A stretch of 27,361 nucleotides of DNA, taken from NCBI GenBank assembly GCA_030753015.1, contig JASMDC010000046.1, positions 1 through 27,361 of the forward strand. The letters run 5' to 3'. The position numbers and the translations under genes were made by a program. The DNA is from Candidatus Undinarchaeales archaeon (GTDB lineage Archaea > SpSt-1190 > JASMDC01). The notes under the pieces are model-generated. The model was not told where the DNA came from. It searched no databases and was given only the letters and a program-made list of their open reading frames with translations. Positions 170-24,188 of the stretch are shown here, one piece after another; the first letter of the stretch is position 1; each line of letters opens with the position of its first letter.

Positions 170-901
170 TCAGTAGCCGGGCCCCGGCGGATTGTAGTAG
201 CCGGAATAGCCGGTTGTATCGCCTGCCCGTCGGGACGCGTAGAAGGAAGGGTTCCCTCCCTGGAAGTACTGATAGGAGTAATCGTACCGCTGGGGAATGT
301 CCTCTGTCGGCTCTGTCTCGCGCTGGGTGTAGAGGAAGAGCCCCGCGGCAGTAATGACCAGCAGGCAGAGCGCTGCGATGATCGCGGTCGAGACGTCGAT
401 GAGCGGTCCTTCCTCGGGCGGACGTGCCGGTCCCCCGGTGTCGGTCGTTGACCCGGGACCATCGGACGTACCGCTGTCGGTTTCGCTTCCCGTATCCCCC
501 GCCGTCGGGATCACGCACTCCTTGACGATGATCTTGCCCTGCGCCTCTCCTGAGATGGCGCCGTCCCGCGGGACGCTGATGACGAGATAGGGGTAGGTGC
601 CAGGCCCCGCGTCAACATCGATCTCGAAGTTGAACACGAACTGGGACTCCATGTCGTGGCCGAGGTTCCAGGTGTACGCGGGCGTGACTACGAACCGTGC
701 AGCGGGCCCCGTGACGTTCGTGACGAACGGGAGGTTACCGCGCAGGAGGTTGCGAACGGTGCTCGTGATGCTGGCGGTGTCGCCCCGGCACACTTCCTTC
801 TCGGCGCCCTCGATGAACACCTCCACACGCAGCTCGCCGTAGTCGGGGGCCACGGCAAGAGCGAGCGACAGGACAATGAGCAGCGCGAGCGTCCGTCTCA
901 C
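170..901 (-). CDS. Type I membrane protein: signal peptide, Ig-like ectodomain, Gly/Thr/Ser linker, C-terminal TM helix, Tyr/Pro/Gly-rich tail
   Basis: MRRTLALLIVLSLALA signal peptide; beta-rich segment (FEIDVDAGPGTYPYLV); TM IIAALCLLVITAAGLFLY; start overlaps the rtcA stop (ATGA). Confidence 0.75.
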   Translation of the reverse strand: MRRTLALLIVLSLALAVAPDYGELRVEVFIEGAEKEVCRGDTASITSTVRNLLRGNLPFVTNVTGPAARFVVTPAYTWNLGHDMESQFVFNFEIDVDAGPGTYPYLVISVPRDGAISGEAQGKIIVKECVIPTAGDTGSETDSGTSDGPGSTTDTGGPARPPEEGPLIDVSTAIIAALCLLVITAAGLFLYTQRETEPTEDIPQRYDYSYQYFQGGNPSFYASRRAGDTTGYSGYYNPPGPGY

Positions 902-1926
902 ATGCCAGACCCCCGTGAACGGAGCTCGAGCACGTGCTCGCCCATGTCCTTTACTTCGAGCACGTCGCCAAGGAACATGCGTACGACGGCCATGTTGGTA
1001 CGCACGTGGGACGTATCGTGCACACGCACGCGCGATCCCGGGGCCAGTGCGATGAACGGAACGATTTGGTCGGAAAGATGAGGGTCGATGGGAAGGTCCT
1101 TCGAGAGGTTCTTCAGGAGGTCATCGGCCGCCTCCTGCCCCACGCGCTCGGCCGGTTTGCCGGGTGCTCCGAGCTCGGAACCCGCAATGTAACCTGTGTC
1201 GCTCCATACGCAGATGCCCGAGCCGGTGCAGCCCTTGTGCCCGGTCGTCGCCTCCTCTTGGATCGTCACCGGACCCAAGCCGTGCTCCTCGAGGGCGGCC
1301 GAACACGCGTTCGCCTGGCGTTGGGCGATCTTTCGCGGCAGACCGGTGCAGTAGGAGATCCCACCGACGGTCCGCGGTGGCAGTGACTCCACGCACTTCA
1401 TGGGTGAGAGAGTACTGGGACGGAAGTGGAACTCGGCCCACCCGCCCCCACGTGGATAGTAGCCCCTGGTGTTCACCGAGACGGTCCCATGGTAGCCCAT
1501 TGCGCCAAGGAACGGGAGCGTGACGTTCTTGACATAGTCTATCGGGGGGCTCCACTTCACATCGGTGCCGCCTGTGACGCTCACCTGGAGGTCACGCGGG
1601 CTCGCCAGGGCTGCAAGCATGAGGGACTGGAGCACCAGCGAGATGCTGCCGGCCGTCCCCACGTCCACGGAGAGCACACCACGCCGTGAATTCCGCGGCT
1701 CGAAAACGATGCTCCTCGAGCCCTCCTTGAGCCCGGCCACTGCACCGTTGCACAGGTCGGCCACGGCCCGGATGCCTGCCACGTGCTGCGGCCGGAGGCC
1801 CGGTTTCGGACGATCGGGTCGAATGTTCGTGATGGTCACCGGTGTCCCGGTCACCATGGAGAGCGCAACGCAGGTGCGGACTATCTGACCGCCCCCCTCC
1901 CCCATGGAGCCCTCCACCTGCAGCAC
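898..1926 (-). CDS. rtcA: RNA 3'-terminal phosphate cyclase
   Basis: GEGGGQIVR, RPKPGLRPQH, GTAGSISLVLQ, GGTDVKWSPPIDY, RGYYPRGGG, DPHLSDQ and catalytic-His TSHVRTN motifs. Confidence 0.97.
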   Translation of the reverse strand: MLQVEGSMGEGGGQIVRTCVALSMVTGTPVTITNIRPDRPKPGLRPQHVAGIRAVADLCNGAVAGLKEGSRSIVFEPRNSRRGVLSVDVGTAGSISLVLQSLMLAALASPRDLQVSVTGGTDVKWSPPIDYVKNVTLPFLGAMGYHGTVSVNTRGYYPRGGGWAEFHFRPSTLSPMKCVESLPPRTVGGISYCTGLPRKIAQRQANACSAALEEHGLGPVTIQEEATTGHKGCTGSGICVWSDTGYIAGSELGAPGKPAERVGQEAADDLLKNLSKDLPIDPHLSDQIVPFIALAPGSRVRVHDTSHVRTNMAVVRMFLGDVLEVKDMGEHVLELRSRGSGM

Positions 1927-1947
1927 GAAATAAACAGGGTGCCGAAA

Positions 1948-1958
1948 GCTTAAATAAC
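1948..1958. promoter_or_regulatory. Shared TATA element between divergent rtcA and serA-like genes
   Basis: GCTTAAATAAC AT-rich island in a 53-bp intergenic gap, about 25 nt from both starts (1926 and 1980). Confidence 0.6.
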
Positions 1959-1979
1959 ATAGCCCGGTGGCCGCTGGCG

Positions 1980-2924
1980 GTGCCGAACGTGGGAAATGAT
2001 GATGATGGACTGCGGGTCCTGGTGGCTGACGGTCTTGCGCCGAAGGCGATCGAGCTGCTCCGGGAAAGGCTGGAGACGGTGGAGGCGAACGACAACACGT
2101 CCGAAGAGGTCCAGGCCATGCTCCCGACCTTCGATGCAGCGATTATCCGGAGCAGAACCCAGGTAAGGGCCGACCGTCTCGCCGAGCCAGGTCGACTGAG
2201 GATCATCGTCCGTGCTGGTGTCGGACTGGACAACGTTGACCTGGACGCGGCTAAGGCGGCAGGGGTCGAAGTGCACAATACGCCCACGGCCACCACACGC
2301 TCGGTCGCTGAGCACGCTCTTGCACTGATGTTCGCACTGGCACGCCACGTCGCCCGCGGGGACGCGTCCACGAAGGCGGGCCTGTGGGAGAAGAAGAAGC
2401 TCAAAGGCGTGGAGCTTGCGGGCAAGACCCTGGGTCTGGCGGGCTTCGGCCGCATCGGACAGGAGCTTGGCAGGATGTGCCAGGCACTGGGCATGACCGT
2501 CATCGCCCACGACAAGTTCGAGGACGTGGTGAGGCCATTTGCCGACGAGATGGGCGTTCCCCTCGTGTCCAAGGAAGAGCTCTTGAGGTCATCGGACTTC
2601 ATCAGCATGCACATGCCCCTGGTCGAGAGCACCCGCGGATGGATCGGGGTCGAGGAGCTAGAGGCCATGCGACCGACCGCTTACATCGTGAACACCTCGC
2701 GCGGAGGCACCATCGACGAGGACGCGCTGCTAGCAGCGCTCCGCTCAAGCACCATTGCAGGGGCCGCACTGGACGTGTTCGCAAAGGAACCAGTGAAAGA
2801 GCCTTTCCCCGAGGCACCGAACCTCGTGCTCACACCGCATGTCGCTGGCACCACGGCCGAGGGTCAGGACCGTGCAGGGCTCGATGCCGCACGTATCGTG
2901 CTCTCCTTCCTCGGACTGGAATGA
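1980..2924 (+). CDS. serA: D-2-hydroxyacid dehydrogenase, phosphoglycerate dehydrogenase-like, without ACT domain
   Basis: RAGVGLDNVD, SVAEH, GFGRIG, SDFISMHMPL, VNTSRGG, AALDVF, LTPHVAG motifs; start moved to GTG 1980 downstream of the TATA box; substrate not certain. Confidence 0.85.
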   Translation: MPNVGNDDDGLRVLVADGLAPKAIELLRERLETVEANDNTSEEVQAMLPTFDAAIIRSRTQVRADRLAEPGRLRIIVRAGVGLDNVDLDAAKAAGVEVHNTPTATTRSVAEHALALMFALARHVARGDASTKAGLWEKKKLKGVELAGKTLGLAGFGRIGQELGRMCQALGMTVIAHDKFEDVVRPFADEMGVPLVSKEELLRSSDFISMHMPLVESTRGWIGVEELEAMRPTAYIVNTSRGGTIDEDALLAALRSSTIAGAALDVFAKEPVKEPFPEAPNLVLTPHVAGTTAEGQDRAGLDAARIVLSFLGLE

Positions 2925-4354: not shown

Positions 4355-5425
4355 TTGTACGAACTTAGCGAGAGCACTATAGAGAGCGAGGAAGGGGCCG
4401 GGGAAAAGTATGCCGTCCTCATCTGTGGGATGGCGGACAGTTCTTCCTTCTACAACAACATATCCTTCGTCCACGACATGCTGCTGGAGAAGGGGTACAA
4501 GGAAGAGAACATCACCGTTCTCTACGACAAGGGCGATGATCCGGAGTCGTTCGACACGGTCCGGGCCCAGGGGGAGTCCAAGGAGGGGCCGGCGCGGTAC
4601 GTACCAGCATCCACATACGGCTTCTCTCCGCGGGAGGAGGGTATCGTGGACGGTGCAGCAGACCGCGAGACCATGACCAAGGTGTTCGCCGAGCTCGGCG
4701 AGAAGGTCACCGAGCGTGACGAGCTGTTCGTGTACGTCACGGACCACGGGGGACGCGTCGGCTCGGGACACAAGGCCGAGAGCACCATCGTTGTCACCGA
4801 TCCGGTGAAGGACGCCGAAAAGAGCTCTGAGGAAGGGAGCAATGCGTACCCACTCACCGTCGGATTCGAGCCGGAGTACACCAAGGCCGACGAGGACGAG
4901 GACACTCCACCCGATCCCGAGCAGCTGGAGGATCAGTACGGGGACCTCACGGAAGAGGAGCTCCTGTCCATGTTCTACGGTACCGACATCTACGGGTTCG
5001 AGGGCTTCGGCAGCTTCGATAACTACGACGAGATCACCGAGTCCGAGTTCGCCCAGATGATCAAGCCCATCAAGGCCAAGAGCGAGATCCTGGTGTTCGA
5101 CCAGTGCCACTCCGGCGGTTTTGCTGACCGCTTCGGCAGGGGCAACCGTGTGGCCGTCTCGGCGTGCCGCGCCAACGAGTCGTCCTACATCTCCCACCCG
5201 ATGGACGGATTTCCGGCGACGTTCTTCGGCGCGCTCCGGGGACGTGACTACGACGGCAACGCGATCGACGCGGACCTCAACGGCGACGGCAAGATATCCA
5301 TCAAGGAGGCCTACCAGTACGCGCTCGAGAACGATGAGTTCGCCAACGGCGATGACGGGTGGTTCACCGAGCACCCGCTGCTCATCGCACGGAACCGCGA
5401 CGCTGACGAGGCGTTCATCGATTAG
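4355..5425 (+). CDS. C13/legumain-like (caspase-hemoglobinase fold) cysteine peptidase, very acidic, with C-terminal EF-hand-like loop
   Basis: KYAVLICG first strand; FVYVTDHGG (His) and LVFDQCHSGGF (Cys) dyad; SACRANESSY; DADLNGDGKISIKEAY. Confidence 0.8.
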   Translation: MYELSESTIESEEGAGEKYAVLICGMADSSSFYNNISFVHDMLLEKGYKEENITVLYDKGDDPESFDTVRAQGESKEGPARYVPASTYGFSPREEGIVDGAADRETMTKVFAELGEKVTERDELFVYVTDHGGRVGSGHKAESTIVVTDPVKDAEKSSEEGSNAYPLTVGFEPEYTKADEDEDTPPDPEQLEDQYGDLTEEELLSMFYGTDIYGFEGFGSFDNYDEITESEFAQMIKPIKAKSEILVFDQCHSGGFADRFGRGNRVAVSACRANESSYISHPMDGFPATFFGALRGRDYDGNAIDADLNGDGKISIKEAYQYALENDEFANGDDGWFTEHPLLIARNRDADEAFID

Positions 5426-10828: not shown

Positions 10829-10916
10829 CTGGAGAGCACCACATGCTTTATAATGCTGAACCCGTGGCCGCGCCCGGGTGTTAAACATAAAAGGGTTGCC
10901 CGACCCACTCCACGCG

Positions 10917-12320
10917 ATGGGAGCGCTCTTCGGCACTTCGGGCATGCGGGGAATCGTCAACCTCGAGATAACGCCACCACTGGTACTCAAGACCGGGATG
11001 GCGCTGGCGGCATCGCTGGACCACTGCGGCAGCGTCGCCGTGGGGACGGACCACCGTACCTCTGCGGAGGCCATCAAGCGCGCTATGGTCGCGGGCATTC
11101 TGGCAGGCGGATGCAACGTGATGGACGTCGGATTGGCCCCCACCCCGACAATCGTGTACGCAGGTTCCAAGCTCGGGTGCGACGCGTCCGTGAGCATCAC
11201 CGCCTCGCACAATCCGCCCGAGTACAACGGCATCAAGCTCTGGAATTCCGACGGCTCGGGTTTCTCACGGGAGCAGGAGGCTGATGTCGAGGAGCTCATC
11301 CTGGGCGCTCAGGTGCCAGGCGTCGAGTGGAACAACGTCGGCAGGGTGTTCCAACGCCCGCACGCCTCACGCACTCACATCGATGCGATCATCACGGCCC
11401 TGGGCCATGTGGACGGGTTCTCTGTTGTGTACGACGGCGGGTGCGGTGCCGGATCAAAGGTCACTCCCTACCTCCTCCGTGAGCTGGGGTGCAAGGTGTT
11501 CACGCTCAATGCCAACCCCGATGGAAGGTTCGATCCGAGGGACCACTTGCGGGGCGAGCCCCTCCCGGCCGCGGGTGATTGGAACCGCATTGCGGACCTG
11601 GCCAACCTCGTCGACACGGTCTTTGCGACCGAGGCCGATTTGGGGCTGGCCAATGACGGTGACGCGGACCGTGTGCTCGTCGTGGACGAGACCGGTACTG
11701 TTGTCCCTCCTGATGTGCTCATCGCCTTCTTCGCCGAGCAGGCACTGAAGGAGAAGAAGGGCGGTACAATCGTCACCACCGTCGAAAGTTCGATGCTCAT
11801 CGAAGAGGTCGCCAAGAAGAACAAGGGCAAGGTCGTGCGCACTCCCGTGGGTGACGTGTTCGTCTCGCGGGCGGTGAAGGAGCACGGTGCGCTCCTTGGT
11901 GCCGAGCCCGCGGGGACCTTCATATTCCCTGACCTTCACCTGTGCCCCGACGGCCCGTTCTCGGCAGCGTGTGCGGTGCGGGTGCTCGCTGAGCACGGCA
12001 GGCCGCTGTCCGAGATCCTGGCCGTGTACGAGCGCTACCCCATGGGTCGGCTCCGTCTCGAATGTCCCAATGAGCGCAAGGCGACTGCCATGGACGCCAT
12101 CGCCGTGGAGCTCGAGGACGCTCTCTCGGGGATCAAGGGCATCGATACCGCTGACGGCATCAGGGCCGAGCTCAAGGACGGTTGGATCCTGGTGCGGCCC
12201 TCCGGCACCGAGCCCATTCTACGGATCACCACCGAGGCACGGGACCAGCAGGCGCTCGACACCACGCTCGAGGCCGCTCAGGAGGCCGTGGGCGACATAA
12301 TCGCCCGGGTGACGCGGTAG
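10917..12320 (+). CDS. glmM: Phosphoglucosamine mutase / alpha-D-phosphohexomutase
   Basis: LFGTSGMRG, ITASHNPPEYNGIK, DGDADR, LGAEPAG, VRPSGTEP motifs; directly upstream of a glmU-like gene. Confidence 0.92.
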   Translation: MGALFGTSGMRGIVNLEITPPLVLKTGMALAASLDHCGSVAVGTDHRTSAEAIKRAMVAGILAGGCNVMDVGLAPTPTIVYAGSKLGCDASVSITASHNPPEYNGIKLWNSDGSGFSREQEADVEELILGAQVPGVEWNNVGRVFQRPHASRTHIDAIITALGHVDGFSVVYDGGCGAGSKVTPYLLRELGCKVFTLNANPDGRFDPRDHLRGEPLPAAGDWNRIADLANLVDTVFATEADLGLANDGDADRVLVVDETGTVVPPDVLIAFFAEQALKEKKGGTIVTTVESSMLIEEVAKKNKGKVVRTPVGDVFVSRAVKEHGALLGAEPAGTFIFPDLHLCPDGPFSAACAVRVLAEHGRPLSEILAVYERYPMGRLRLECPNERKATAMDAIAVELEDALSGIKGIDTADGIRAELKDGWILVRPSGTEPILRITTEARDQQALDTTLEAAQEAVGDIIARVTR

Positions 12321-12321
12321 C

Positions 12322-13458
12322 GTGGAAGCGGTCATCCTCGCCGCCGGCCAAGGGACGCGGATGCGCCCCATCACGCCCGGTGTCCCCAAATCGCTCATCC
12401 CCGTGGCCAACCGCCCATTCCTCTCCCTTGTCGTGGACCGGGTACGGGCAGCTGGTGCAAAGCGTATCGTGGTAGTGGTCTCCCCGGAGAACCGTGACGC
12501 GATCCAGAACGCGCTGGATGACGTACAGGTCGCGGTCCAGGAGGTGCCCCGCGGTACCGCCGACGCTGTGGCGGCCGCTGAGAACGCCGTAACGGACGAC
12601 TTCCTCCTGGTCAACGGCGACACTCTCATCGAGGTGGACGACCTTCGCCGCCTTGCGGACGAATCAGGTTGTGCCATGGGGCTCGCGCGTGTGGACGATC
12701 CCTCTGCGTACGGCATCGCTGAGGTCGTCGACGGTCGCGTGGTGGCCATCGACGAGAAACCCGAGCATCCCCGGGGCGACCTCGCCAACACCGGTACCTA
12801 CCGGCTCACCAGGGCGGTATTCGATGCCATCCGGCGGACGCCGCTCTCGGAACGGGGCGAGCTGGAGCTTACTGCTTCTCTCATGCTCCTGCACGAGCGA
12901 GGGACACCGGTGCATGCATGCCTCATCGAACGCGGGTGGCGTGATTTCGGTGCCCCCTGGCACGTGCTCGACCTCAACGACGAGGCGCTGGCCGTGCTCG
13001 AGGCCCCCACACCACGGATCGACGGCGCCATCGTCAACGGCCCTGTGGTGCTGGGCACAGGGTGCACGGTGGGCGAGGATGCCATCATCCAGGGTCCTGC
13101 TGTGGTCGGCAACGGGTGTGAGATCGGTGCCGGTGCACGCATCGGTCCGGGATCGTCCGTGGGCGCGGGGTGCGTGCTGGGTGACGGGAGCGTCGTGGAG
13201 GGCTCGGTCCTGTGCGAAAGGGTCACGGTCGGTGATGGTGCGCAGGTGCTCTCCTCCGTGCTCGGGGCCGGGGCGACCGTGGGGATGGCGGCCACTCTTC
13301 TGGACACGAACGACGACAGCTCGACGGTCCGGATGACCGTGAAGGACAGGGACCTCGACACAGGCCGCACGCGGTGCGGTGCACTGGTCGGGTGCGGTGC
13401 CGCCGTGGACGACATGGAGGTCGTGTTCCCGGGATCGCTTGTGTTTGCGATGGAATGA
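12322..13458 (+). CDS. glmU: Sugar-1-phosphate nucleotidyltransferase with left-handed beta-helix (archaeal GlmU-like)
   Basis: AVILAAGQGTRMRP, PKSLIPVANRP, GTADAV, VNGD, EKP, SERGELELT, hexapeptide repeats, DTGRTRCGALVG. Confidence 0.85.
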   Translation: MEAVILAAGQGTRMRPITPGVPKSLIPVANRPFLSLVVDRVRAAGAKRIVVVVSPENRDAIQNALDDVQVAVQEVPRGTADAVAAAENAVTDDFLLVNGDTLIEVDDLRRLADESGCAMGLARVDDPSAYGIAEVVDGRVVAIDEKPEHPRGDLANTGTYRLTRAVFDAIRRTPLSERGELELTASLMLLHERGTPVHACLIERGWRDFGAPWHVLDLNDEALAVLEAPTPRIDGAIVNGPVVLGTGCTVGEDAIIQGPAVVGNGCEIGAGARIGPGSSVGAGCVLGDGSVVEGSVLCERVTVGDGAQVLSSVLGAGATVGMAATLLDTNDDSSTVRMTVKDRDLDTGRTRCGALVGCGAAVDDMEVVFPGSLVFAME

Positions 13459-13539: not shown

Positions 13540-15057
13540 GTGGTAGTCTGCCTCGTCAATCCACCGCAGCTGTCCACACCCTACCAAGTGACGGACGGCC
13601 TCATGCCGCCCCTTGGCATCATGTTCCTTTCCGCAGTGCTCAAGAAGGAGGGGTTCGATGTGCACGTAATCGATGCACCGGGCGAGGCATCGACGAATCG
13701 GTACGAGCATGACGGGAACCCGCTCCGCGGCCTCGGGATCGAAGCGATCATCGAGCGCATCCCCGAAGGGACGCGGCTCGTGGGGATCGCCGGTATCTTC
13801 TCCATGAACCACCACGTACTCATGGAGCTTGCCCATTCCGTCAAGGAACGGTTGCCAGATGTCATCGTGGTCGTCGGGGGGTCACATGCGACCGCCGTGG
13901 CCGAGTACGTCATGAAATCCGAGGATGTTGATGTCGTGTGCCTGGGGGAAGCTGAACGCTCGCTGCTCGCCCTTTGCCACACCCTGGAGCGTAACGGATG
14001 GCGGACGGTCCCAGCCGACCTTGCTGGGATCGCGGGGATAGCCTACCGTGACGGGGAGCGTATCGTAGTCAATAGGGACGTGGAGCTCATCGACGACGTG
14101 GACGCTATTCCCTATCCCGACTGGAAGAGCGTGCCCATGGAGACCTACTACACCTCTAAAGAAGCGAATGGACCGGTATGGACCGATCGCTGGGTACCGC
14201 TGCTCTCCTCACGGGGCTGTCCGTACGACTGTGCCTTTTGCAGCACACCGGCCATATGGCGTCGTCGATGGCGTCCGCGCGACCCGGTCAAGCTCATCGA
14301 CGAGATAGCCTGGCTCCAGCGTGAGCATGGGATCCAGGAGGTGCACTTCGAGGACGAGAACATGAGCACCGATCCCAAGAGGCTGGAAGCGTTCTGTGAC
14401 GAGCTCGTACGACGGGACATCGGTATCAAGTGGCAGGCAGCGAACGGAATGCGCGCCCACGGCCTCGACAGGGAGCTGCTGACAAAGATGGTCGCCTCCG
14501 GGTGCACGAACCTCGTGCTCGCCCCCGAGTCAGGTTCCCGCTGTCTCCTCCGTGAGGGACTTAACAAGGACATCGACCTGGACGAGATCGCGCAAGCTGG
14601 TCGGACCGCCCACGGACTGGGACTGCGTACGTCCACATTCTTCATGATGGGCATGCCCGGGGAGACACGAAGGGACGTCGCCCGGACCCTGGTATATCTC
14701 ATGCGGCTGGCGTTCGCTGGGGTGGACGAGTGCTCGATCGGGCAGTTCGTGCCTCTCCCCGGGAGCCGTCTGTTCGACCGACTGCGCTCCGAGGGACGGA
14801 TCGAGCTCGATGACGCGTTCTTCCGCTCGCTCACGGCAATGGGCGATCTCTCCTCGTCACGCTCGTGGTCCGAGCACTACTCCAATCCGGAGCTGAAGAT
14901 ATACCAGCTGATCGGCCTCGGCCTGTTCCACGTCACCCGGCTCGTGTTCCATCCCGTGAGCACGGCACGGACCTTCGCCAATGTGCTCAAGGGACGGCAG
15001 GAGCTGAAGAGCGAGCGGTTCCTCATCTCGAAGCTACGCCGGTTTAGAGGTAGATGA
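13540..15057 (+). CDS. Cobalamin-binding radical SAM protein
   Basis: LVNPP, PPLG, VGGSHAT, GEAE B12-binding domain; SSRGCPYDCAFC; FEDEN; PESGS; FMMGMPGET; PLPGS. Confidence 0.93.
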   Translation: MVVCLVNPPQLSTPYQVTDGLMPPLGIMFLSAVLKKEGFDVHVIDAPGEASTNRYEHDGNPLRGLGIEAIIERIPEGTRLVGIAGIFSMNHHVLMELAHSVKERLPDVIVVVGGSHATAVAEYVMKSEDVDVVCLGEAERSLLALCHTLERNGWRTVPADLAGIAGIAYRDGERIVVNRDVELIDDVDAIPYPDWKSVPMETYYTSKEANGPVWTDRWVPLLSSRGCPYDCAFCSTPAIWRRRWRPRDPVKLIDEIAWLQREHGIQEVHFEDENMSTDPKRLEAFCDELVRRDIGIKWQAANGMRAHGLDRELLTKMVASGCTNLVLAPESGSRCLLREGLNKDIDLDEIAQAGRTAHGLGLRTSTFFMMGMPGETRRDVARTLVYLMRLAFAGVDECSIGQFVPLPGSRLFDRLRSEGRIELDDAFFRSLTAMGDLSSSRSWSEHYSNPELKIYQLIGLGLFHVTRLVFHPVSTARTFANVLKGRQELKSERFLISKLRRFRGR

Positions 15058-16941: not shown

Positions 16942-17925
16942 CTACCTATCGATAACGGGGACGGTCACAGCATCGCGCCATCGCCGGTGGTAGGCGAGCG
17001 CCGCCATGGCACCGATGCACCCGCGCCTGCCCGTGACCGGTTCAAGGCCGACGGAGGGAAGGGTCGCGGCCGTGCTGAACGTGTCATCAATGCTCACCAC
17101 AGCTCCCCTTGCGGCCCGACCGAAGAACGAGAGCGCTGGTGGGACGTCCCGGCCATGGAGCCAGGCCAGCCCCGTGTGCTCGGACAGGGTCCACTTCTCC
17201 AGGAGGTGGCGGGCCCTTCGCAGGAGAGCGTCACGTCCGTCCGTTGGTACGGCGAGCGTGATCGCGGTGGCCACGCAGTTGCGCGTTCGGTGTGGGGCGC
17301 TGGGGTAGAGCTGGGCGAGAGCGTGGTAGAGATAGTCTCCCAGTCCACCTTCCTGGAGCGCGGTCCCGAGGGTGTGACACAGGGACCACGTGGATCCCTC
17401 GTCCTCGGTGTCCGTGTCGTCGACACCCAGTACGACCTTCTCCCGGAGCGGGAGCACGACCGTGGCAGAGCTCTTTCGTGAGCCTCCCGGGGGTTCGTGG
17501 ACCACGATGCGCAGCACACCCTTGGCGAGCCCGCGGGAGATACATGCCCCGACCCCACCTCCGCCGAGACCGTGGTACGTGACACGCACCTCATCGGCCT
17601 CCCGGTCCACGACCACAGCACCGATACCCGCGGGGCGGAGGCCAGGTACCAGTTCTGGCTCGACATCACCGGTACACAGGTCATAGATGGCGAGCGTCCC
17701 CTCACGTTGCGCGCTGGTGACCAGCTTACTGGCGGCCGGGTAGTGGTGGCCTGTCCATGCAGCACCGCCGAGGCAGCTGCCCTCCTCTACGAGCTCGACG
17801 AACGTGGGATCCGCTGGATCGACCGTGGCAGTGATCCGCTTCGTGGAGGTCGCCCAGGGGACGTCCGCTACCAGGGAACGCAGCTCCGAGGGCAGGTGCT
17901 CACCGGGTGACAGCTCCAGCGCCAT
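16942..17925 (-). CDS. mmp11: Methanogenesis marker protein 11 (C-terminal half TiaS-like)
   Basis: VELVEE.SCLGGAAWTGHHY, TYHGLGGGGVGA, LGVDDTDTEDEGSTW, QLYP...RTRNCV, GRRGCIGAMAAL; likely start MALELSPG at 17925. Confidence 0.85.
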   Translation of the reverse strand: MALELSPGEHLPSELRSLVADVPWATSTKRITATVDPADPTFVELVEEGSCLGGAAWTGHHYPAASKLVTSAQREGTLAIYDLCTGDVEPELVPGLRPAGIGAVVVDREADEVRVTYHGLGGGGVGACISRGLAKGVLRIVVHEPPGGSRKSSATVVLPLREKVVLGVDDTDTEDEGSTWSLCHTLGTALQEGGLGDYLYHALAQLYPSAPHRTRNCVATAITLAVPTDGRDALLRRARHLLEKWTLSEHTGLAWLHGRDVPPALSFFGRAARGAVVSIDDTFSTAATLPSVGLEPVTGRRGCIGAMAALAYHRRWRDAVTVPVIDR

Positions 17926-17945
17926 GGCACCGACGCCGCTGACAA

Positions 17946-17956
17946 GCTTAATAAAC
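17946..17956. promoter_or_regulatory. Bidirectional TATA element for mmp11 and the mtxX operon
   Basis: CTTAATAAAC is the only AT-rich stretch in the 53-bp gap between starts at 17925 (-) and 17979 (+). Confidence 0.65.
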
Positions 17957-17978
17957 CATGCGCCCGGTGGTGGAGGGT

Positions 17979-18827
17979 ATGGGGGCCACCGTGTGGGAGG
18001 CGGTCGTGGCCATGGCACGGGAAAGACCGTCCAAGGTGGCGCTTGGCATGCGTCCCGGTGTGTCCCCTGATGATGACGCCTTCCTTGCCGACGCTGAGCG
18101 GTTCCGATCAGAGGGTTTCGGTTGCCCGATCGTCGTGACGCTCCCCGGTGTGCAGGTCCCCGGCGAACTGGACGTGATCGAGGCCAAGGATCCCGAGCGT
18201 GAGCTCGTCCGCCTGCTGGCCGACGGCGAGGTGGATGCTGCCGTCCGCGGTGCCCTGGACGCCGCAACGACCCTGGGGCACCTGAAGCGCGCCTTCAACG
18301 TCCCTTCGCTCTGTCGTATCGCCCTCCTTCGTGCTGCGAACGGGCAGGAGTTCTTCCTCGCGCCCGTGGGCGTGGTGGAGGGTGCTGCAATGGTCGACCG
18401 TCTCGAGCTCGTGCGACGGTTCACCGAACTGGCCGCACTCCTTGGGATCGAGCCCAAGATATCGGTGCTCGCCGAGGGCAGGATGGAGGACCGTGGGCGA
18501 GGCCGAACCGTGGAGGAGAGCCTTCACGAGGCCGAGCTCATCACGAAGCTGGCCCGGGACCGTCTCGGAGTGACGGACGTCCGGATGACGGGCATCGTCA
18601 TCGAGGAGGCCTTGGAGGACGGACCTCGTCTCGTGCTGGCGCCGAGCGGACCTACCGGCAATCTAGTGTTCCGGAGCCTCGTGTACCTGGGCGCAGGGGA
18701 AGCTCTGGGTGCCCCCGCCTGCTCCCTCCGCCGTCCCTTCGTGGACGTGTCCCGTGGTCGAACGGACGTGCTCAATGCCATGGTCTTCGCGTCCGCGATG
18801 GTGGCCGGGGGATGGGATAATGGGTGA
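17979..18827 (+). CDS. mtxX: Methanogenesis marker protein 4 / MtxX (phosphotransacylase-like fold)
   Basis: VDAAVRG, FFLAPVGVVEG, EPKISVLAEGRMEDRGR, LAPSGPTGNLVFRSLVYLG, FVDVSR motifs; GGAGG before ATG 17979. Confidence 0.88.
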   Translation: MGATVWEAVVAMARERPSKVALGMRPGVSPDDDAFLADAERFRSEGFGCPIVVTLPGVQVPGELDVIEAKDPERELVRLLADGEVDAAVRGALDAATTLGHLKRAFNVPSLCRIALLRAANGQEFFLAPVGVVEGAAMVDRLELVRRFTELAALLGIEPKISVLAEGRMEDRGRGRTVEESLHEAELITKLARDRLGVTDVRMTGIVIEEALEDGPRLVLAPSGPTGNLVFRSLVYLGAGEALGAPACSLRRPFVDVSRGRTDVLNAMVFASAMVAGGWDNG

Positions 18828-20346
18828 TCTGGCCCACGCGCTGGCCGACACACTGGCCGCGCTCGGCTCCCGTCGATGCATGTGCAACCCTGGCCAGGAC
18901 GTCGTTGCCGTTATCGATGCCCTGGAGGGCAGTATGGGGACTACCATGTTCCCAACAGAAGTGGGGGCAGGATTCGCCGCTGACGGGTATCGTCGTGTGG
19001 ACCCGCGGGGGACGGACCTTCCCGTGTGCGTCGTGACCGGCAAGGCCGGTGCCGCACACCTCGCCCTCCCGCTCGAGAACGCGTTCGCCGACGGAGTCGG
19101 GATGCTCGCAGTGACGGGCAGGTGCACCGTGGAGCTTGCGACGGTGAGCGTGGCAAACGTCGACATCGGCGATAACACCAGCAAGGGCCTTCCTGAAGTG
19201 GTGAACGCCTTCGAGCTCGCATGTACGCCACCGCAGGGTCCGGCGCTCGTCACGCTCGACCGTACGGCCCAGTACGGACCGGCCGAAGCAGCGCCCCGTG
19301 AGCTTACCTTCGGGCATCGCGATCCCTCTCCGCGCGATGTGGAACAGGCCACGGACATCATCGCGAGCGCCGAACGACCGCTCATCCTCCTGGGCACTGG
19401 CTGCCTGTCAGGGGACGTGGAGGGCCTGCGCGAGGCCGTGACGGCCATCGGGATCCCCTGTGTGACCTCGATGCCTGCGCGGGGTGTCGTGGACGAGGAG
19501 CTCGAGCAGTGCCTCGGTCCTGCCGGTATGCGCGGCAAGGCAGCAGCGAACGACGCCCTGCGCGGGGCCGACGCTGTCCTCGCCGCTGGCTGCTCACTCT
19601 CTCATCTGACGGTCCCCGTCGGTGCACTGGACGGCACGCGTGTGTTCCGGGTGGACGTACGTGGGCAGGCCGATGCCGATACGGATGCTGCGGCCTTCGT
19701 CACAGCGACCCTACACGCCGTCGATGAGCGTGAGCCGTGGGTCCGGGCCGATGGACCGCTCGTGTACGAGGGTTCGTTCGCGGCACCGGTCGCGGTATCG
19801 TCGATCATGGACACCCTCCGCCCCGGCGACTGCCACGTCTATGATGTGGGGGCGTTCTCCATGTGGGCGTGTGCTGCCGGCACCGTCCGTGAGCCGGGAT
19901 CCTTCCTCATGCCCCATAACGTGTACCCGCTCGGGTACGCCGTCCCGGGGGCCATCGGCGCCCTCATGCGCGGGACACGAGAAAGGATCGTGGCCGTGTG
20001 CGGCGATGGAGGTTTTGTCGCATCGCTGGCCACCCTCCCTATGGCCGCTGAGCACGACATCACGATCGTGGTGCTCGATGACGGGGGGATGGACATCATC
20101 CGCCAGCGGCAGGTCGAGCGAGGGCTCTCCACTTTGACCTCGCACCTACCCCGGACCGATCCCGTGGCGTTAGCGCGTGGCTGTGGCATCGAGTCCGTGC
20201 GTGTCGACCGTCGCGAGGACCTTGTGGCCCAGCTCGAGGGTGCGGGCCGCGGAGCGCTCCTAGTACACTGTCGGCTGGAGCGGGGCCCCAGGATCCTGGG
20301 CGCTCTGGATGGCAACAATTTTAAAGTCAGGGATGGTTCGGGATGA
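18820..20346 (+). CDS. Thiamine diphosphate-dependent enzyme (acetolactate synthase/decarboxylase superfamily)
   Basis: TEVGAGFAADGY (catalytic Glu), GMRG, LGYAVPGAIG, CGDGGF...VVLDDGG ThDP-binding motif; start overlaps the mtxX stop. Confidence 0.9.
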   Translation: MGDLAHALADTLAALGSRRCMCNPGQDVVAVIDALEGSMGTTMFPTEVGAGFAADGYRRVDPRGTDLPVCVVTGKAGAAHLALPLENAFADGVGMLAVTGRCTVELATVSVANVDIGDNTSKGLPEVVNAFELACTPPQGPALVTLDRTAQYGPAEAAPRELTFGHRDPSPRDVEQATDIIASAERPLILLGTGCLSGDVEGLREAVTAIGIPCVTSMPARGVVDEELEQCLGPAGMRGKAAANDALRGADAVLAAGCSLSHLTVPVGALDGTRVFRVDVRGQADADTDAAAFVTATLHAVDEREPWVRADGPLVYEGSFAAPVAVSSIMDTLRPGDCHVYDVGAFSMWACAAGTVREPGSFLMPHNVYPLGYAVPGAIGALMRGTRERIVAVCGDGGFVASLATLPMAAEHDITIVVLDDGGMDIIRQRQVERGLSTLTSHLPRTDPVALARGCGIESVRVDRREDLVAQLEGAGRGALLVHCRLERGPRILGALDGNNFKVRDGSG

Positions 20347-20347
20347 C

Positions 20348-21358
20348 GTGGTCGGTCACATCCTGCAGCTGAAAGCAGAGCTCCTCGCTGATGGCCGGGT
20401 CCGCCTTCATCCGGGCGTTTCCACGATCGGCATCATCTCCGCCCCAACCGCAGGACCGGCAGCGGGCGAGTCTACCGTGTTCATCCGCCTTGACGGCTCC
20501 CGGGTGCGCCTCAGGCTCGACGACCATGCACGTGTGGCCCTGACGGCCGAGGGGACGCTCGAGCGTGACGGTGAGGTCATCGCCACCGGTGTCAAGCTTG
20601 AGCCCGTTGTGGCACACTGCCCGGAACAGGTGTACACGACCGTGGTCCCAGGATGTATCCACAAATGTGCATTCTGCGCCCTTTCGGGGCACGTAGCTGC
20701 CGCCCGCTCCGAGGAGATAATTATTTCACGTATCGAGCATGCATTCAAGTCATCGGTGGTTGTCCCCGTGGCGCTCACGTCCGGTGTGTCACCCGACGGT
20801 TCCGAGCTGGACCTCTGCGTGAGAGTCGTGAATCGCATCAAGGACAAATGGCGCGTGGTCCCGGTCGGAGTGTCGATCTGCATCAAGGACAAGAAGGACC
20901 TCGAGCGGCTCCTTGAGGCCGGGTGCGACGAGATCAAGATCAACCTCGAGGTGGCCGATCCGGACATCCTTCGCAAGGTGTGCCCCCATAAGGACCGGGA
21001 CGCCATCATCGCTCTCATGAAGGAGGCCGTTGAGATGTTCGGCCGGGGCAGAGTGTGCTCCAATATCATCCTCGGCCTCGGGGAGAGCGATCAGGCCGTG
21101 CTGGACACCATGAAAGAGCTTGCAGCAATAGGGGTCGTGGCCAACCTGCGACCGTTGGAGGTGACGCTGGCCGTTGAGCCCGCCCTGGAGCGTGCTCTGG
21201 GGATCGGGGGTTTCGCTCGACCGCAGGCCGACCGGCTCATCCGGCTGGCAGAGGCGCAGTGCAAGATCCTCGCCAAGCACCGTCTTTCGGCCTCCGGTAT
21301 GGACACGATGTGCTCGGCATGCACGGGGTGTGACCTGGCTCCTGGAGAGGACCTGTGA
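20348..21358 (+). CDS. Radical SAM protein (biotin-synthase-related) with extra C-terminal CxxCxxC
   Basis: AHCPEQ, GCIHKCAFC, ALTSG, IKINLE, SNIILGLGE, TMCSACTGCDL; start is GTG 20348 or ATG 20333. Confidence 0.88.
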   Translation: MVGHILQLKAELLADGRVRLHPGVSTIGIISAPTAGPAAGESTVFIRLDGSRVRLRLDDHARVALTAEGTLERDGEVIATGVKLEPVVAHCPEQVYTTVVPGCIHKCAFCALSGHVAAARSEEIIISRIEHAFKSSVVVPVALTSGVSPDGSELDLCVRVVNRIKDKWRVVPVGVSICIKDKKDLERLLEAGCDEIKINLEVADPDILRKVCPHKDRDAIIALMKEAVEMFGRGRVCSNIILGLGESDQAVLDTMKELAAIGVVANLRPLEVTLAVEPALERALGIGGFARPQADRLIRLAEAQCKILAKHRLSASGMDTMCSACTGCDLAPGEDL

Positions 21359-21370: not shown

Positions 21371-22543
21371 GTGGTGCGCGAGCTGACGGACGTGGGAGCG
21401 GCATCACTGTACGCACAAAGGATACGACTGAAGGGGCCGATCGAGCTCTACGATTCAACTCTCCGGGACGGCGAGCAGACCCCTGGCGTGTGCTTCACCC
21501 CTGACGAGAAGGAGGCGATCGCGCGCGAGCTCGACGCAGTGGGCGTACCCATCATCGAGGCCGGATTCCCTGTGGTATCGCCCAAGGAGGCCGAGGGCGT
21601 CAGGCGGATCGTGGCTGCTGGACTCGACGCGCGGCTAGTGGCGCTCTCGCGACTCAGGGATGAGGACATCGACGTCGCCGTGGACTGCGGTGTGGATGGC
21701 GTGCTCCTCTTCATCGCGAGCTCGGACGTCCATCTCGACCACAAGCTCCACATGGACCGGGAACAAGTACTGGAGGCCGTCGCCTCTAAGGTTGCCTATG
21801 CTCGCGACCGTGGGCTCCGTGTCCAGTTCACTCCCGAGGACGCGTCCCGGACAGATCCTGCATTCCTCAAAGAAGTGCTCGCCACTGCCGAGTGGGCGGG
21901 TGCCGAGCGTGTGGGCGTGGCCGATACCGTGGGTATCCTCGATCCGGCAGCGACCAGACGGCTGGTGCGTACGGCCATGGAGGCCGTGAAGGTACCGGTC
22001 TCCGTCCACCTCCACAATGACCTGGGTCTGGCGACCGCGAACACCCTTGCAGCCTTCGAGGAGGGGGTCGTGGCCGCTGCCGTGACGGTGAACGGCATCG
22101 GCGAGCGTGCCGGAAACGCCTCCCTGGAAGAGGTCGCTGCGTCGCTGGCCGTCCACTACGGGTACGACTGCGGCATCGACCTCTCCCGACTCACAGAGCT
22201 ATCCGAGCTCGTCTCCCATCTCACGGGCATACCCGTACCAGGCAACAAGGCGGTGGTCGGCCCCAATACGTTCACCCACGAGTCCGGTATCCATGTGGCC
22301 GCAGTACTGGAGGAGCCTGCCACCTACGAACCGTTCCCAGCTGAGCTCGTGGGAGGGCGGCGCAACCTTGTGTTCGGCAAACACAGCGGACGGAAGGCCG
22401 TGCGCCACCTCCTTCGGAAGGAGGGTCTCGCTCATGGTCCCGATGCCGTCGGTCGCGTGCTGGCACTGCTCAAGGACGTGGAGGGGCCGTTGACCCATCG
22501 GGAGCTGATTGTGCTGACAAGGGACGGGGGTACGATGCAGTGA
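21371..22543 (+). CDS. aksA: Homocitrate synthase family (DRE-TIM), no regulatory domain
   Basis: DSTLRDGEQTPG, IEAGFP, EDASR, ADTVG, HLHNDLGLA, NGIGERAGN, HESGIH, GKHSG; 390 aa lacks the LeuA C-terminal regulatory domain. Confidence 0.8.
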   Translation: MVRELTDVGAASLYAQRIRLKGPIELYDSTLRDGEQTPGVCFTPDEKEAIARELDAVGVPIIEAGFPVVSPKEAEGVRRIVAAGLDARLVALSRLRDEDIDVAVDCGVDGVLLFIASSDVHLDHKLHMDREQVLEAVASKVAYARDRGLRVQFTPEDASRTDPAFLKEVLATAEWAGAERVGVADTVGILDPAATRRLVRTAMEAVKVPVSVHLHNDLGLATANTLAAFEEGVVAAAVTVNGIGERAGNASLEEVAASLAVHYGYDCGIDLSRLTELSELVSHLTGIPVPGNKAVVGPNTFTHESGIHVAAVLEEPATYEPFPAELVGGRRNLVFGKHSGRKAVRHLLRKEGLAHGPDAVGRVLALLKDVEGPLTHRELIVLTRDGGTMQ

Positions 22544-23544
22544 CCATACCTCTCGTGGTGGTCCGTGGCGATGGTGTGGGGCCCGAGGTCGTTGACGCGG
22601 CCCTTGCGGCAGCATCCCCCCTTCTGGACGGCTTCGAGCTCGTGGAGGCCCGGATGGGGTTGACATGCTACCGGGAGACTGGGAGCGCGCTGCCCGCGGA
22701 CACGCTCGAGATGCTACGGGACGGAGGGCTCGCCCTCCTTGGCGCGGTCCAGACCCCGCCCAACGCCCATTACAGCTCGCCATTGTTACGTATGCGACGG
22801 GAGCTCGACCTGTTCGCCAACCTGCGCCCGGTCCGCGACCTCCGTGGCGGGCCCGTCGACCTGGTGGTCGTGCGGGAGAACCTCGAGTGCCTGTATGCCG
22901 GTCTCGAAGGCGGTAATGAGGACACTGCCCTGGCGATCCGCGTGATCACACGACAGAATTGCGAGAGGATATCGCGGTTCGCTCTGGAGCTCGCTCGTGA
23001 CCGGTCGGAGGATCACCGGAAGGTGACCTGCGTGCACAAGGCCAACGTACTGGCCCAGACCTGCGGTCTCTTCCGAGACACCTTCACCAGGGTGTCCGGG
23101 GACTACCCGGACGTGCCCGTGGACGAGCTCCATGCGGATGTGTGCGCCATGCGGATGGTCATGGATCCAGGCTCCATGGACGTTCTTGTCACCACCAACA
23201 TGTTCGGTGACATCCTCTCCGACCTGGCCGCGGGACTGGTCGGCGGCCTTGGCACGGTGCCCTCGGGCAACATCGGCGAGCGATGCGCGGTGTTCGAGCC
23301 CGTCCACGGTGCCGCACCAGACATCGCTGGGAAGGGTGTGGCCAATCCGGCCGCCGCCATCCTCTCGCTCGCCATGCTGCTCGAGCATGCGGGGGACATT
23401 GACGGTGGTCGCCGCCTCTCCCGCGCGGTCGAGTCGTGCGTGCTCGCAGGGGAGACCACACCGGACCTTGGCGGGTCCCTTGGCACCGACGCGGTCGCTA
23501 GGGCGGTCCTGCATCGGCTGGAGACCGATACGGTGGAGGGATGA
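22540..23544 (+). CDS. aksF: Isocitrate/isopropylmalate family beta-decarboxylating dehydrogenase, probable homoisocitrate dehydrogenase
   Basis: [56 protein letters not shown]; coupled to the aksA-like gene; AksF versus LeuB assignment is from context. Confidence 0.75.
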
Positions 23545-24188
23545 GGTTGCGCTGGAACGCTCACGTGATGCTCGCGCTGTGCGGACTTCCTGTCATGGCA
23601 CGCCTCCTGCCCGGCTTCGACCTGTTGGCGGACGGGTTTGTGGCCGCCGTAACGCTCTGTCTGGCCGCCATGCTCCCCGACTTCGACCGGGTGGAGGGGC
23701 TGGACCAGGTTCCCGGCTACCTAACGGGCGTCTGGCGACGCACTCTGGCAGGATGCGTGGTGCTCTATCCCCTGTTCCTCGTAGCCCGTTACATGAATGG
23801 CTGGCGCCCTGTCACACCGGACCTGGGGCTCATGCTGCTGCTCTTGGTCCTGGTCGTGGCCTCGTTCGTGGTGCTTGCCATCGCGTTCGCGCTCCTCACA
23901 CGCCTGCTCGGCCTCGCCCATCGGAAGCTACTCCATTCCCTCGTGCTACCGGTCACTGGCGCTGCTGCTGCCATGATTGAGGGCATTCCCATCATAGTCC
24001 CTGTAGCGTTCGTTCTTGGTTTCGGTTCCCATGCACTGGCCGACGCGCTCACACCGTCCGGTGTGTACCCGTTCTATCCCCTCTCGACCCGCCGGATCTC
24101 CCTGGACGTCGTACGCACCGGCGGGTGGGGCGAGCGCTCCTTCTTGGTCGTGTTCTTCATCACGTTCGTGGCCCTGAGTATATTCTAG
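23541..24188 (+). CDS. Membrane-bound metal-dependent hydrolase (YdjM-like)
   Basis: N-terminal His, [25 protein letters not shown] motifs; ATGA overlap with aksF. Confidence 0.85.

Follow-up and report, generated by a model that had tools for sequence, protein, structure and literature searches.

Which enzyme forms the thiol of coenzyme B (7-mercaptoheptanoyl-threonine phosphate) is the question raised by a radical S-adenosylmethionine (SAM) gene in contig JASMDC010000046.1 of a Candidatus Undinarchaeales archaeon (GenBank assembly GCA_030753015.1), the whole 27,361-nucleotide (nt) stretch being termed the window here. Coenzyme B is one of the two thiols used in each turnover of methyl-coenzyme M reductase. 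In the accessible part of PMC3087415 its synthesis is described as proceeding from 2-oxoglutarate, via Aks-type elongation, to 2-oxosuberate and then to an aldehyde; the enzymes acting after 2-oxosuberate are still without assignment, the pathway being called unknown in the available text of a 2025 paper (PMC12068725). A first-pass annotation of the window had proposed that the gene product carries an auxiliary Fe-S cluster and installs the terminal thiol of 7-mercaptoheptanoate. The analysis described here places the gene in an archaeal radical SAM family with a second conserved cysteine site, distant members of which are coupled to genes for methanogenesis marker 11 and XcbA-like proteins inside aks-like clusters. 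The gene is best read as part of a coenzyme B biosynthesis cluster.

A second conserved cysteine site

Homologues were collected by a word-indexed search, which gave 126 at E<=1e-3, and by running a profile exhaustively against 1.84 billion cluster representatives; the latter gave 2676 proteins at E<=1e-3, of which 918 reached E<=1e-10 and 172 reached E<=1e-30. Conservation was counted in an alignment of 87 sequences, i.e. the window protein and 86 in-family representatives of 50%-identity clusters, each of at least 300 residues, with shorter fragments excluded.

As judged from its domain match and motif, the gene encodes a radical SAM protein: Pfam Radical_SAM (PF04055) covers residues 112-270 at 62.5 bits (gathering score 29.5, E 7e-17), and the cysteines of the CIHKCAFC motif already recognised in the first-pass annotation (C116, C120 and C123) are kept in 81, 82 and 81 of the 87 sequences, respectively. 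The C-terminal CSACTGC motif is also present and is a family feature. Lack of conservation of its cysteines had been named as a possible refutation of the first proposal; of the 87 sequences, 85 keep C335, 86 keep C338 and 76 keep C341, which is replaced by Ser in 9. A further cysteine, C225 of a 'VCP' motif, is kept in 71/87. None of the four (C225, C335, C338 and C341) varies in an alignment of 64 sequences, and C225 is likewise invariant in an 11-sequence alignment, five members of which score best against the model of the bacterial MSMEG_0568 family (see below). With conservation at this level, the cysteine motifs are not due to chance.

The HCP motif upstream of the radical SAM cysteines is present as well, H103 and P105 being kept in 84/87 and 83/87, but its cysteine fares differently. 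Because Cys occurs at position 104 in only 26 of the 87 sequences (Ala in 48, Ser in 10), C104 is not a family-wide cluster ligand. The first-pass idea of an auxiliary site thus stands with regard to the existence of a second conserved set of cysteines and falls with regard to the HCP cysteine. C225, which that annotation did not mention, is the likelier fourth ligand, and C225 together with the C-terminal CxxCxxC most likely holds the predicted auxiliary Fe-S cluster, the four cysteines being compatible with a second such cluster.

Other conserved elements lie in the N-terminal domain, including K22 (84/87), an AGPxAG loop (G49, P50) and H103-x-P105, and in the core, where an E208-x-K210-x-N212-x-E214 strand and a GLGES motif align with the NxE(T) and GLGET motifs of BioB/LipA. 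The numbering follows the longest open reading frame (ORF) of 349 residues at 20309..21358 (+), with its stop codon at 21356-21358. Three start codons are possible, i.e. ATG 20309, ATG 20333 and GTG 20348, and the stop codon of the upstream gene occupies 20344-20346. Because a 90% identical homologue (P0001) and an ESM Atlas record both begin at Met9, i.e. nt 20333, that ATG is the likely start. The GTG at 20348 chosen in the first-pass annotation, one base past the upstream stop, is a legitimate alternative, but the homologues make it the less likely one.

An archaeal family without a name

No NCBIfam model reaches its cut-off for the window protein. The NF045502 'variant_rSAM' model gives 79 bits (cut-off 125), and LipS2 (NF053743) is the best function-named match at 67.4 bits versus a cut-off of 270, followed by the MSMEG_0568 family (TIGR04043; 62.5 versus 303.7), BioB (TIGR00433; 53.9 versus 225) and LipA (TIGR00510; 30.6 versus 310.25). 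Membership of the BioB, LipA and LipS2 families was rejected on these scores, which are far below the cut-offs, and on failed motif tests. The MiaB/RimO/MtaB methylthiotransferases were likewise rejected, TIGR01579 scoring 18 bits versus a cut-off of 357 and neither an N-terminal UPF0004 nor a C-terminal TRAM match being found. In the Pfam scan Radical_SAM was the sole family matched by the whole protein, and the N- and C-terminal parts matched none (for the N-terminal part, none at E<=1). On these comparisons the gene is a member of an archaeal radical SAM family without a name.

The closest named group is the bacterial MSMEG_0568 family. All eight scanned matches of the exhaustive search with E ~1e-37 or weaker score best against the MSMEG_0568 model, and a profile-profile comparison (hhalign) of the two families gives probability 100 and E 6.8e-51 over 317 aligned columns; the two families are homologous end to end. 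The NCBIfam name of the bacterial family points to a nitrogen-starvation context, and we take the family to belong to the Nit1C nitrilase cluster. A search for longer, fused forms of the archaeal protein recovered none, which is weak evidence, and nine longer members are without an extra Pfam domain. As a separate observation, the ESM Atlas holds as a structural neighbour a cluster of 774-residue Bacillota proteins with two ATP-grasp domains and a radical SAM part; the latter aligns with the whole window protein (TM-score 0.82 by query), and these proteins were not recovered by the sequence search for fusions.

The kinship with MSMEG_0568 enzymes brings in a first alternative, namely that the enzyme is unrelated to coenzyme B. 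It could be a biotin/lipoate-type synthase, could modify another cofactor, a protein or RNA, or could be the archaeal counterpart of the MSMEG_0568 (Nit1C-cluster) enzyme, with its aks neighbours being coincidental or connected via C7 precursors. In its favour are the closeness of the MSMEG_0568 family, which keeps company with a GNAT acetyltransferase (fused in P0261), the label 'biotin synthase-related' that JGI gives to family members, and the origin of pimelate for biotin from the same 2-oxoacid pathway in methanogens. The BioB, LipA and LipS2 scores stand against it, as does the neighbourhood: there are no bio or lip genes near the window gene, and none among the recurrent annotated neighbour families of the 81 loci examined below. 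The biotin- or lipoate-type role that the first-pass annotation had kept as an alternative finds no support here, family scores and neighbouring genes both failing to bear it out.

Fold and solved relatives

An AlphaFold2 (AF2) model built from 64 sequences is of high predicted quality (predicted local distance difference test score, pLDDT, 93.7; predicted template modelling score, pTM, 0.90), including the C-terminal blocks (pLDDT 94-98). Foldseek matches of the model in the Protein Data Bank (PDB) are, in order, Mycobacterium tuberculosis LipA (5exk, E 8.7e-9, TM-score by query, TMq, ~0.5), MqnE, HydE (TMq 0.53-0.54), human LIAS, BioB, NifB, ThiH, PylB and HydG, with the alignments covering the barrel only. 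Compared with PDB sequences, the family profile matches a type II biotin synthase best (8vdw, E 3e-11), then M. tuberculosis LipA (E 1.7e-9) and HydE (E 4e-7). As modelled, the fold is thus of the BioB/LipA/HydE-type barrel group, and the closest solved relatives insert or handle sulfur, a point in support of the first-pass interpretation.

The N-terminal domain, modelled alone (AF2, pLDDT 87.2), gave no PDB fold match at E<=0.001, the best being at E 0.3. Its look-alikes in the ESM Atlas are the N-termini of related radical SAM proteins and, otherwise, barrel-sandwich folds at a TM-score of ~0.4.

Linkage to coenzyme B genes

A one-genome-per-species scan with a family-specific pattern found 310 loci with a relative, of which the best 80 were analysed together with the window (81 loci in total); ORFs were called crudely and clustered by BLASTP, and the radical SAM ORF of L042, which was missed, was added by hand. 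By label, the best 80 of the 310 comprise 30 Methanotrichales, 22 Methanosarcinales, 7 Methanomicrobiales, 7 Methanomassiliicoccales, 6 unclassified Methanobacteriota and 3 Thermoplasmata loci, with single loci labelled Undinarchaeota (L001), Hydrothermarchaeota (L007), unclassified archaeon (L014), Acidiferrales (L036) and Anaerolineales (L075). Occurrence in bacteria via L036 was rejected, since it has in common with the archaeal loci L056 and L065 five clusters of ORFs downstream and a radical SAM protein that is nearly identical, and is probably misbinned. The radical SAM protein of L001 is 84% identical to that of the window, with which the locus is syntenic. L001 (CAZFHY010000014.1) is from a metagenome-assembled genome (MAG) labelled Undinarchaeota (DPANN) that nevertheless has methanogenesis-marker and aks-like genes, making the label doubtful.

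No neighbouring gene is common to all 81 loci. A coenzyme-B-type context within 7 kb, i.e. marker 11, XcbA-like and/or Aks-like genes, is found in nine (the window, L001, L007, L014, L033, L035, L042, L047 and L061), with Aks-like genes in seven of these (the window, L001, L014, L033, L035, L042 and L047). In the window itself the genes for a thiamine pyrophosphate (TPP) enzyme, the radical SAM protein and the AksA- and AksF-like proteins are tightly packed, the first junction being +1 or an overlap, followed by a gap of 12 nt and an overlap of 4 nt; marker 11 and the Mmp4/MtxX-like gene lie just upstream.

Loci other than the window strengthen the link to coenzyme B, since distant homologues are coupled to marker 11 and XcbA-like genes inside aks-like clusters. 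The fullest case is L014, where the order is a small radical SAM protein, marker 11, the radical SAM enzyme, XcbA-like, AksA-like, AksD-like, AksF-like and an acetolactate synthase (ALS)-like TPP enzyme, with ATGA overlaps at both ends of the radical SAM gene, joining it to marker 11 before it and to the XcbA-like gene after it. In L007 (Hydrothermarchaeum) an MtmB-like gene is followed by marker 11, radical SAM and XcbA-like genes. Two Methanomicrobiales loci begin with Ftr, marker 11 and the radical SAM gene, continuing in L033 with an IOR-alpha-like TPP protein, AksA-, AksD- and AksE-like, XcbA-like and AksF-like genes, and in L042 with AksA- (found by tblastn), AksD-, XcbA- and AksF-like genes. 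L035 has the order radical SAM, IOR-alpha-like, AksA-like (on the opposite strand), AksD-, AksE-, AksF- and XcbA-like. In L061 (Methanarcanum) the XcbA-like gene is divergent from the radical SAM gene, which is followed by marker 11.

On a quick maximum-likelihood tree of the family, which has long branches and only Shimodaira-Hasegawa-like approximate likelihood-ratio (SH-aLRT) support, the coenzyme-B context needs at least five state changes, and it is therefore not one inherited synteny block. If the rate at which aks, marker 11 or XcbA-like genes would be linked by chance is put at ~2% per lineage, occurrence of such linkage in at least 6 of 20 lineages gives a binomial p of ~3e-6 under our own rough assumptions. 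Both this improbability of chance linkage and the ATGA overlaps with marker 11 and the XcbA-like gene count against a function unrelated to coenzyme B, in favour of which stand the 45 of 81 loci without informative context; on balance, we consider such a function somewhat unlikely.

Two unrelated types of TPP enzyme occur in these clusters, an ALS-like type in the window, L001 and L014 (12737-14245) and an IOR-alpha-like type in L033 (7912-9231) and L035 (2181-3689), where it directly follows the radical SAM gene. The enzyme of the window is a candidate 2-oxoacid (2-oxosuberate) decarboxylase, and the presence of two types looks like non-orthologous replacement of this candidate activity.

A different context is seen at 27 of the 81 loci, which have cysteine/sulfur genes (CysS in 18, CysE in 6, CysK in 6, NifS-like in 4 and O-acetylhomoserine sulfhydrylase in 7). 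This context and the coenzyme-B context never coincide at one locus. CysS lies ~15 nt downstream and co-oriented in five Methanomassiliicoccales loci (L020, L026, L039, L045 and L062), three of which (L020, L026 and L045) also have CysE and CysK; it further adjoins the gene, without being co-oriented, in 13 Methanotrichaceae-type loci (Methanothrix). The CysS adjacency hints at a link to cysteine. It may thus be that the protein is a general radical SAM enzyme of thiol-cofactor synthesis or sulfur trafficking, using a cysteine-derived donor or acting on cysteine-aldehyde adducts in the making of coenzyme M, coenzyme B or further thiols, with its place in the coenzyme B cluster only one context among several. 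Apart from the separation of the two contexts and the operonic CysS genes, this proposal can draw on XcbA, itself an enzyme of coenzyme M chemistry, on the action of the structurally close HydE on cysteine-derived sulfur (as given in PDB titles), and on one MAG with two copies of the gene in different contexts (L047, aks-like; L003, CysE/NifS-like). Much of the CysS linkage is, however, inherited synteny in the Methanotrichaceae, with the genes being divergent or convergent, and no locus of the 81 ties the gene to comDE or cysteate synthase. MMP16 is, moreover, the primary coenzyme M synthase in Methanosarcina in the available text of PMC12068725. We hold such a general thiol function to be unlikely.

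Two family copies occur in more than one genome, i.e. L010 and L052 (contig CAWBKV010000001.1) and L003 and L047 (MAG JARYLJ01). In the latter, a Methanomicrobiales MAG, L047 lies near AksD-/AksF-like genes and L003 near CysE and NifS-like genes, and the two may have diverged in function.

Partner candidates: marker 11 and XcbA-like proteins

Four distant loci have the marker 11 gene next to, or overlapping, the radical SAM gene (L014, 6057-6995; L007, 6105-6995; L033, 6117-7010; L061, 8071-9027). Marker 11 has a domain like the TCKD of TiaS, with an invariant GxDDTD motif. The kinase domain of TiaS works by ATP activation of a carbonyl oxygen, and by analogy marker 11 might serve the coenzyme B pathway as an ATP-dependent enzyme that activates a carbonyl or forms an amide. 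The marker 11 gene of the window was at first labelled 'TiaS' from its Pfam match, a label replaced when TIGR03280 proved to be above its cut-off; since the homologous part of the product begins near ORF residue 115 in the alignment, its real start is probably near nt 17925.

XcbA-like genes are direct neighbours of the radical SAM gene in L007 (7912-8871), L014 (7990-8895) and L061 (6076-6945, minus strand) and lie in the same cluster in L033 (12082-12897), L035 (8272-9105) and L042 (11736-12662). Against NF052538 (cut-off 150) the L061 protein scores 209 bits and the L007 protein 119.7 bits, i.e. below the cut-off. For the L014 protein there is a Pfam match to DUF7714, at 200.8 bits, and a homologue search started from this protein gave two matches only. 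Six cysteines are invariant across seven aligned XcbA-like sequences. XcbA of Xanthobacter is, in the accessible part of PMC9457059, a [2Fe-2S] protein and makes coenzyme M by reducing sulfoethanethioaldehyde. The archaeal XcbA-like proteins are accordingly put forward as candidate reductases for the coenzyme B thiol.

A possible role in thiol formation

The order of genes in the window (candidate TPP decarboxylase, radical SAM enzyme, Aks genes) is that expected for a cluster spanning the steps from 2-oxosuberate to the thiol, and the same is true of the coupling of marker 11, radical SAM and XcbA-like genes elsewhere. The best equivalog matches of the Aks-like genes are the methanogen Aks and homoaconitase models. 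We regard it as plausible, if still short of probable, that the radical SAM enzyme acts where the thiol of coenzyme B is formed, in the aldehyde-to-thiol step. In this scheme 2-oxosuberate made by the Aks-like enzymes would be decarboxylated to 7-oxoheptanoate by the neighbouring TPP enzyme, and the radical SAM enzyme would act next, taking the aldehyde to the thiol with marker 11 and also, in other lineages, with a thioaldehyde reductase of the XcbA-like type.

Two variants of the chemistry can be envisaged. A substrate radical might attack a sulfide held on the C225/CxxCxxC cluster in a manner resembling LipA/BioB. Alternatively, a cysteine-aldehyde adduct might be split by radical chemistry to give a thioaldehyde, which would be reduced by the XcbA-like protein. 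The second variant matches an old thiazolidine proposal reportedly made by White, and fits the action of HydE on thiazolidines/cysteine sulfur, as given in PDB titles, and the cysteine-gene neighbours.

A wider and more doubtful proposal, which we put forward tentatively, is that marker 11, the radical SAM enzyme and the XcbA-like protein together make up the missing aldehyde-to-thiol module of coenzyme B synthesis in Methanomicrobia-type methanogens, Methanomassiliicoccales, Hydrothermarchaeota and the lineage of the window. In such a module marker 11 would activate a carbonyl with ATP in the manner of TiaS, the radical SAM enzyme would form the C-S bond or release a thioaldehyde, with the sulfur on, or the cysteine at, the C225/CxxCxxC cluster, and the XcbA-like protein would reduce the thioaldehyde. 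If true, this would be a new radical SAM sulfur chemistry on an aldehyde-derived substrate, non-orthologous to the route via COG1900 enzymes.

The linkage could equally be explained, and is in fact identical, if the enzyme acted at another step of the coenzyme B pathway, e.g. in radical decarboxylation or rearrangement of the 2-oxoacid or a C8 intermediate, or in activation or maturation of the XcbA-like protein or marker 11, with the second cluster serving for electron transfer only. Four Cys ligands suggest a closed cluster, MqnE, ThiH, PylB, HydG and NifB of the same structural group do chemistry other than sulfur insertion, and an XcbA-like reductase with a COG1900-type sulfurtransferase could cover the sulfur step alone. 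A TPP enzyme capable of decarboxylation is, however, already encoded alongside, and the known or expected steps (elongation, TPP decarboxylation, amide formation and phosphorylation) need no radical chemistry, judging from established knowledge and the accessible part of PMC3087415; we consider this explanation quite improbable.

A role in the aldehyde-to-thiol step has several points to contend with, some of which concern the distribution of the gene. Among the best 80 of the 310 loci there are no Methanococcales, Methanobacteriales or Methanopyrales. Because these orders also make coenzyme B, the enzyme is unlikely to be a universal solution for the thiol step. Homologues occur in Hydrothermarchaeota (L007, probably L014) and among proteins named Bathyarchaeota, lineages that to our knowledge are mostly without methyl-coenzyme M reductase. 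Neither context is found at 45 of the 81 loci, and the loci with coenzyme-B context include none labelled Methanotrichales or Methanosarcinales. XcbA-, AksD- and AksE-like genes are absent from the window, and the Aks-like genes are below the Aks equivalog cut-offs both there and at the other loci.

Other points concern the chemistry. Conversion to a thiol of an aldehyde, the intermediate of a route on which White is said to have done labelling work, needs no hydrogen abstraction from an unactivated carbon. The accepted route runs via this aldehyde in the accessible part of PMC3087415, and in that of the 2025 study (PMC12068725) the COG1900 enzymes MMP16 and/or L-ASST are suggested for coenzyme B in Methanosarcina, which has this radical SAM gene besides COG1900 enzymes. 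The thiol-installing role proposed at first pass thus gains from the linkage to coenzyme B genes and loses from the 45 uninformative loci, the three orders not seen among the best 80 of 310 and the genetics favouring COG1900 enzymes. In a literature search made mostly without subscription journals, no paper was found that assigns the family or marker 11 to coenzyme B, nor one that reports the genomic link of the family to coenzyme B genes, marker 11 or an XcbA homologue.

A last group of points concerns the second site. LipA has an N-terminal CX4CX5C motif and a C-terminal RSSY-type serine ligand, the latter also not being in the window protein. The N-terminal motif is absent from the window protein, in which C104 is the sole cysteine ahead of C116. 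The auxiliary ligands of BioB are C97/C128/C188/R260 in type I (1r30) and C52/C138/C198 in type II, the second cluster of the latter (4Fe-5S; 8vdw, 8vcw) being used as the sulfur source (PMC10813225, in the part available); in a HMMER sequence alignment, type II ligand positions fall on non-Cys residues of the family (near V188/S189 and S251/N252). Since neither the BioB positions nor the LipA N-terminal motif is matched, the second site appears, at the level of aligned residues, to be built unlike that of any solved relative, and the parallel with BioB and LipA as sulfur donors drawn at first pass is reduced to an analogy. By analogy with HydE, the second site may be an accessory cluster only; the four Cys ligands would leave no open iron site, so that a structural or electron-transfer cluster is possible.

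The comparison nevertheless yields a testable gene set for the coenzyme B thiol, i.e. TPP decarboxylase, two-site radical SAM enzyme, methanogenesis marker 11 and XcbA-like reductase. Should it be confirmed, a gap of long standing in methanogen biochemistry would be closed, one or more of the 'methanogenesis markers' would acquire a function, the sulfur-related radical SAM enzymes would gain a new auxiliary-cluster architecture, and methane mitigation would have new targets. Were it refuted, the family would be the archaeal sister of the equally unexplained bacterial MSMEG_0568 enzymes.

Other features of the window

The features at and around the radical SAM gene are collected in Table 1. The Mmp4/MtxX-like protein carries a weak PTA_PTB-like tail (E 0.23). 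Further upstream, a B12-binding radical SAM protein of 505 residues (13540-15057, plus strand), which is conserved in L001, scores 186 bits as P-methyltransferase-like and 166 bits as BchE-like, both far below the cut-offs. Housekeeping genes at 898-1926 (-), 1842-2924 (+) and 10878-13458 (+) encode RNA 3'-phosphate cyclase, a phosphoglycerate-dehydrogenase-like protein and archaeal GlmM and GlmU. Between 4286 and 10100 both strands hold long overlapping ORFs without an NCBIfam match, with a weak Pfam Peptidase_C13 match at 4355-5425 (+); the DNA there has 58-68% G+C (1-kb windows), and many of these ORFs are probably spurious. A tRNA scan of the window found none, and an Rfam search over 16.5-24.5 kb found no family.

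Table 1. Genes and protein features around the radical SAM gene, in window coordinates
Feature	Position	Strand	Basis and remarks
Methanogenesis marker protein 11	16942..18267	-	TIGR03280 266.1 bits (cut-off 255.8); Pfam TiaS_TCKD; GxDDTDT motif; divergent from the operon
Mmp4/MtxX-like gene	17958..18827	+	TIGR03270 173.9 bits, below cut-off of 190; first of the plus-strand cluster
Acetolactate-synthase-like TPP enzyme	18709..20346	+	Pfam TPP_enzyme N, M and C domains; below every NCBIfam cut-off
Radical SAM gene	20333..21358	+	Longest ORF from ATG 20309; likely start ATG 20333; first-pass start GTG 20348
N-terminal domain, family-specific (residues 9-105)	20333..20623	+	Long helix, then small beta domain; AF2 models
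HCP motif H103-C104-P105	20615..20623	+	13 residues ahead of the radical SAM motif
Radical SAM core (residues 112-270)	20642..21118	+	CxxxCxxC at nt 20654-20677; PF04055 62.5 bits
Cys225 ('VCP')	20981..20983	+	Probable fourth ligand of second Fe-S site; conservation
C335-x2-C338-x2-C341	21311..21331	+	Probable auxiliary Fe-S cluster site; conservation, alignment with MSMEG_0568 family cysteines
AksA-like homocitrate/isopropylmalate synthase	21371..22543	+	HMGL-like 279 bits; LEU1_arch 438.6 versus cut-off 484.75; 12 nt past the radical SAM stop
AksF-like homoisocitrate/isopropylmalate dehydrogenase	22540..23544	+	Iso_dh 287 bits; best equivalog AksF2_Meth 342.8 versus cut-off 540
YdjM-like membrane protein	23541..24188	+	End of the tightly packed plus-strand genes

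Comparison with known systems

The chemistry behind the first proposal for the window gene is that of LipA, which adds sulfur to the terminal carbon of medium-chain acyl groups. LipA and LIAS are among the top Foldseek matches of the window protein and LipS2 is its best function-named NCBIfam match; by contrast, the LipA substrate is protein-bound, and both LipA and LipS2 score far below their cut-offs. BioB shares the barrel and the NxE and GLGE(S/T) motifs and provides the top PDB match of the family profile (8vdw). It differs in that its auxiliary ligands, by our reading of the sequence alignments, do not match C225 and the CxxCxxC motif, in having no such N-terminal domain and in the low TIGR00433 score of the window protein.

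HydE gives the highest TM-scores, and it resembles the window protein in having a C-terminal auxiliary cluster, which is dispensable (a PDB entry is titled 'Auxiliary cluster deleted variant'). As indicated by the titles of PDB entries 5few, 5ff2 and 5fep, it acts on cysteine-derived or thiazolidine sulfur. However, HydE is without the shared N-terminal domain, its cysteine spacing differs, and there are no hyd genes at the window locus.

The COG1900 enzymes (MMP16/ComF and L-ASST) and XcbA have the same proposed task, i.e. making a cofactor thiol from a carbonyl precursor. They have no sequence relation to the radical SAM protein and are candidate partners or competitors for the same step.

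Overall similarity is greatest with the bacterial MSMEG_0568 family, which is also matched by the NF045502 'variant_rSAM' model and has a like N-terminal domain with the conserved Lys (K22) and AGPxAG loop, His103, the 'CP' cysteine C225 and the C-terminal cysteines. By contrast, 8-9 residues separate the first and second cysteines of its radical SAM motif, which is thus longer than the canonical CX3CX2C of the window protein, and the GNAT acetyltransferase gene that accompanies it has no counterpart in the window. As judged from these comparisons, both the architecture of the second site and the N-terminal domain are new relative to the solved or named radical SAM families.

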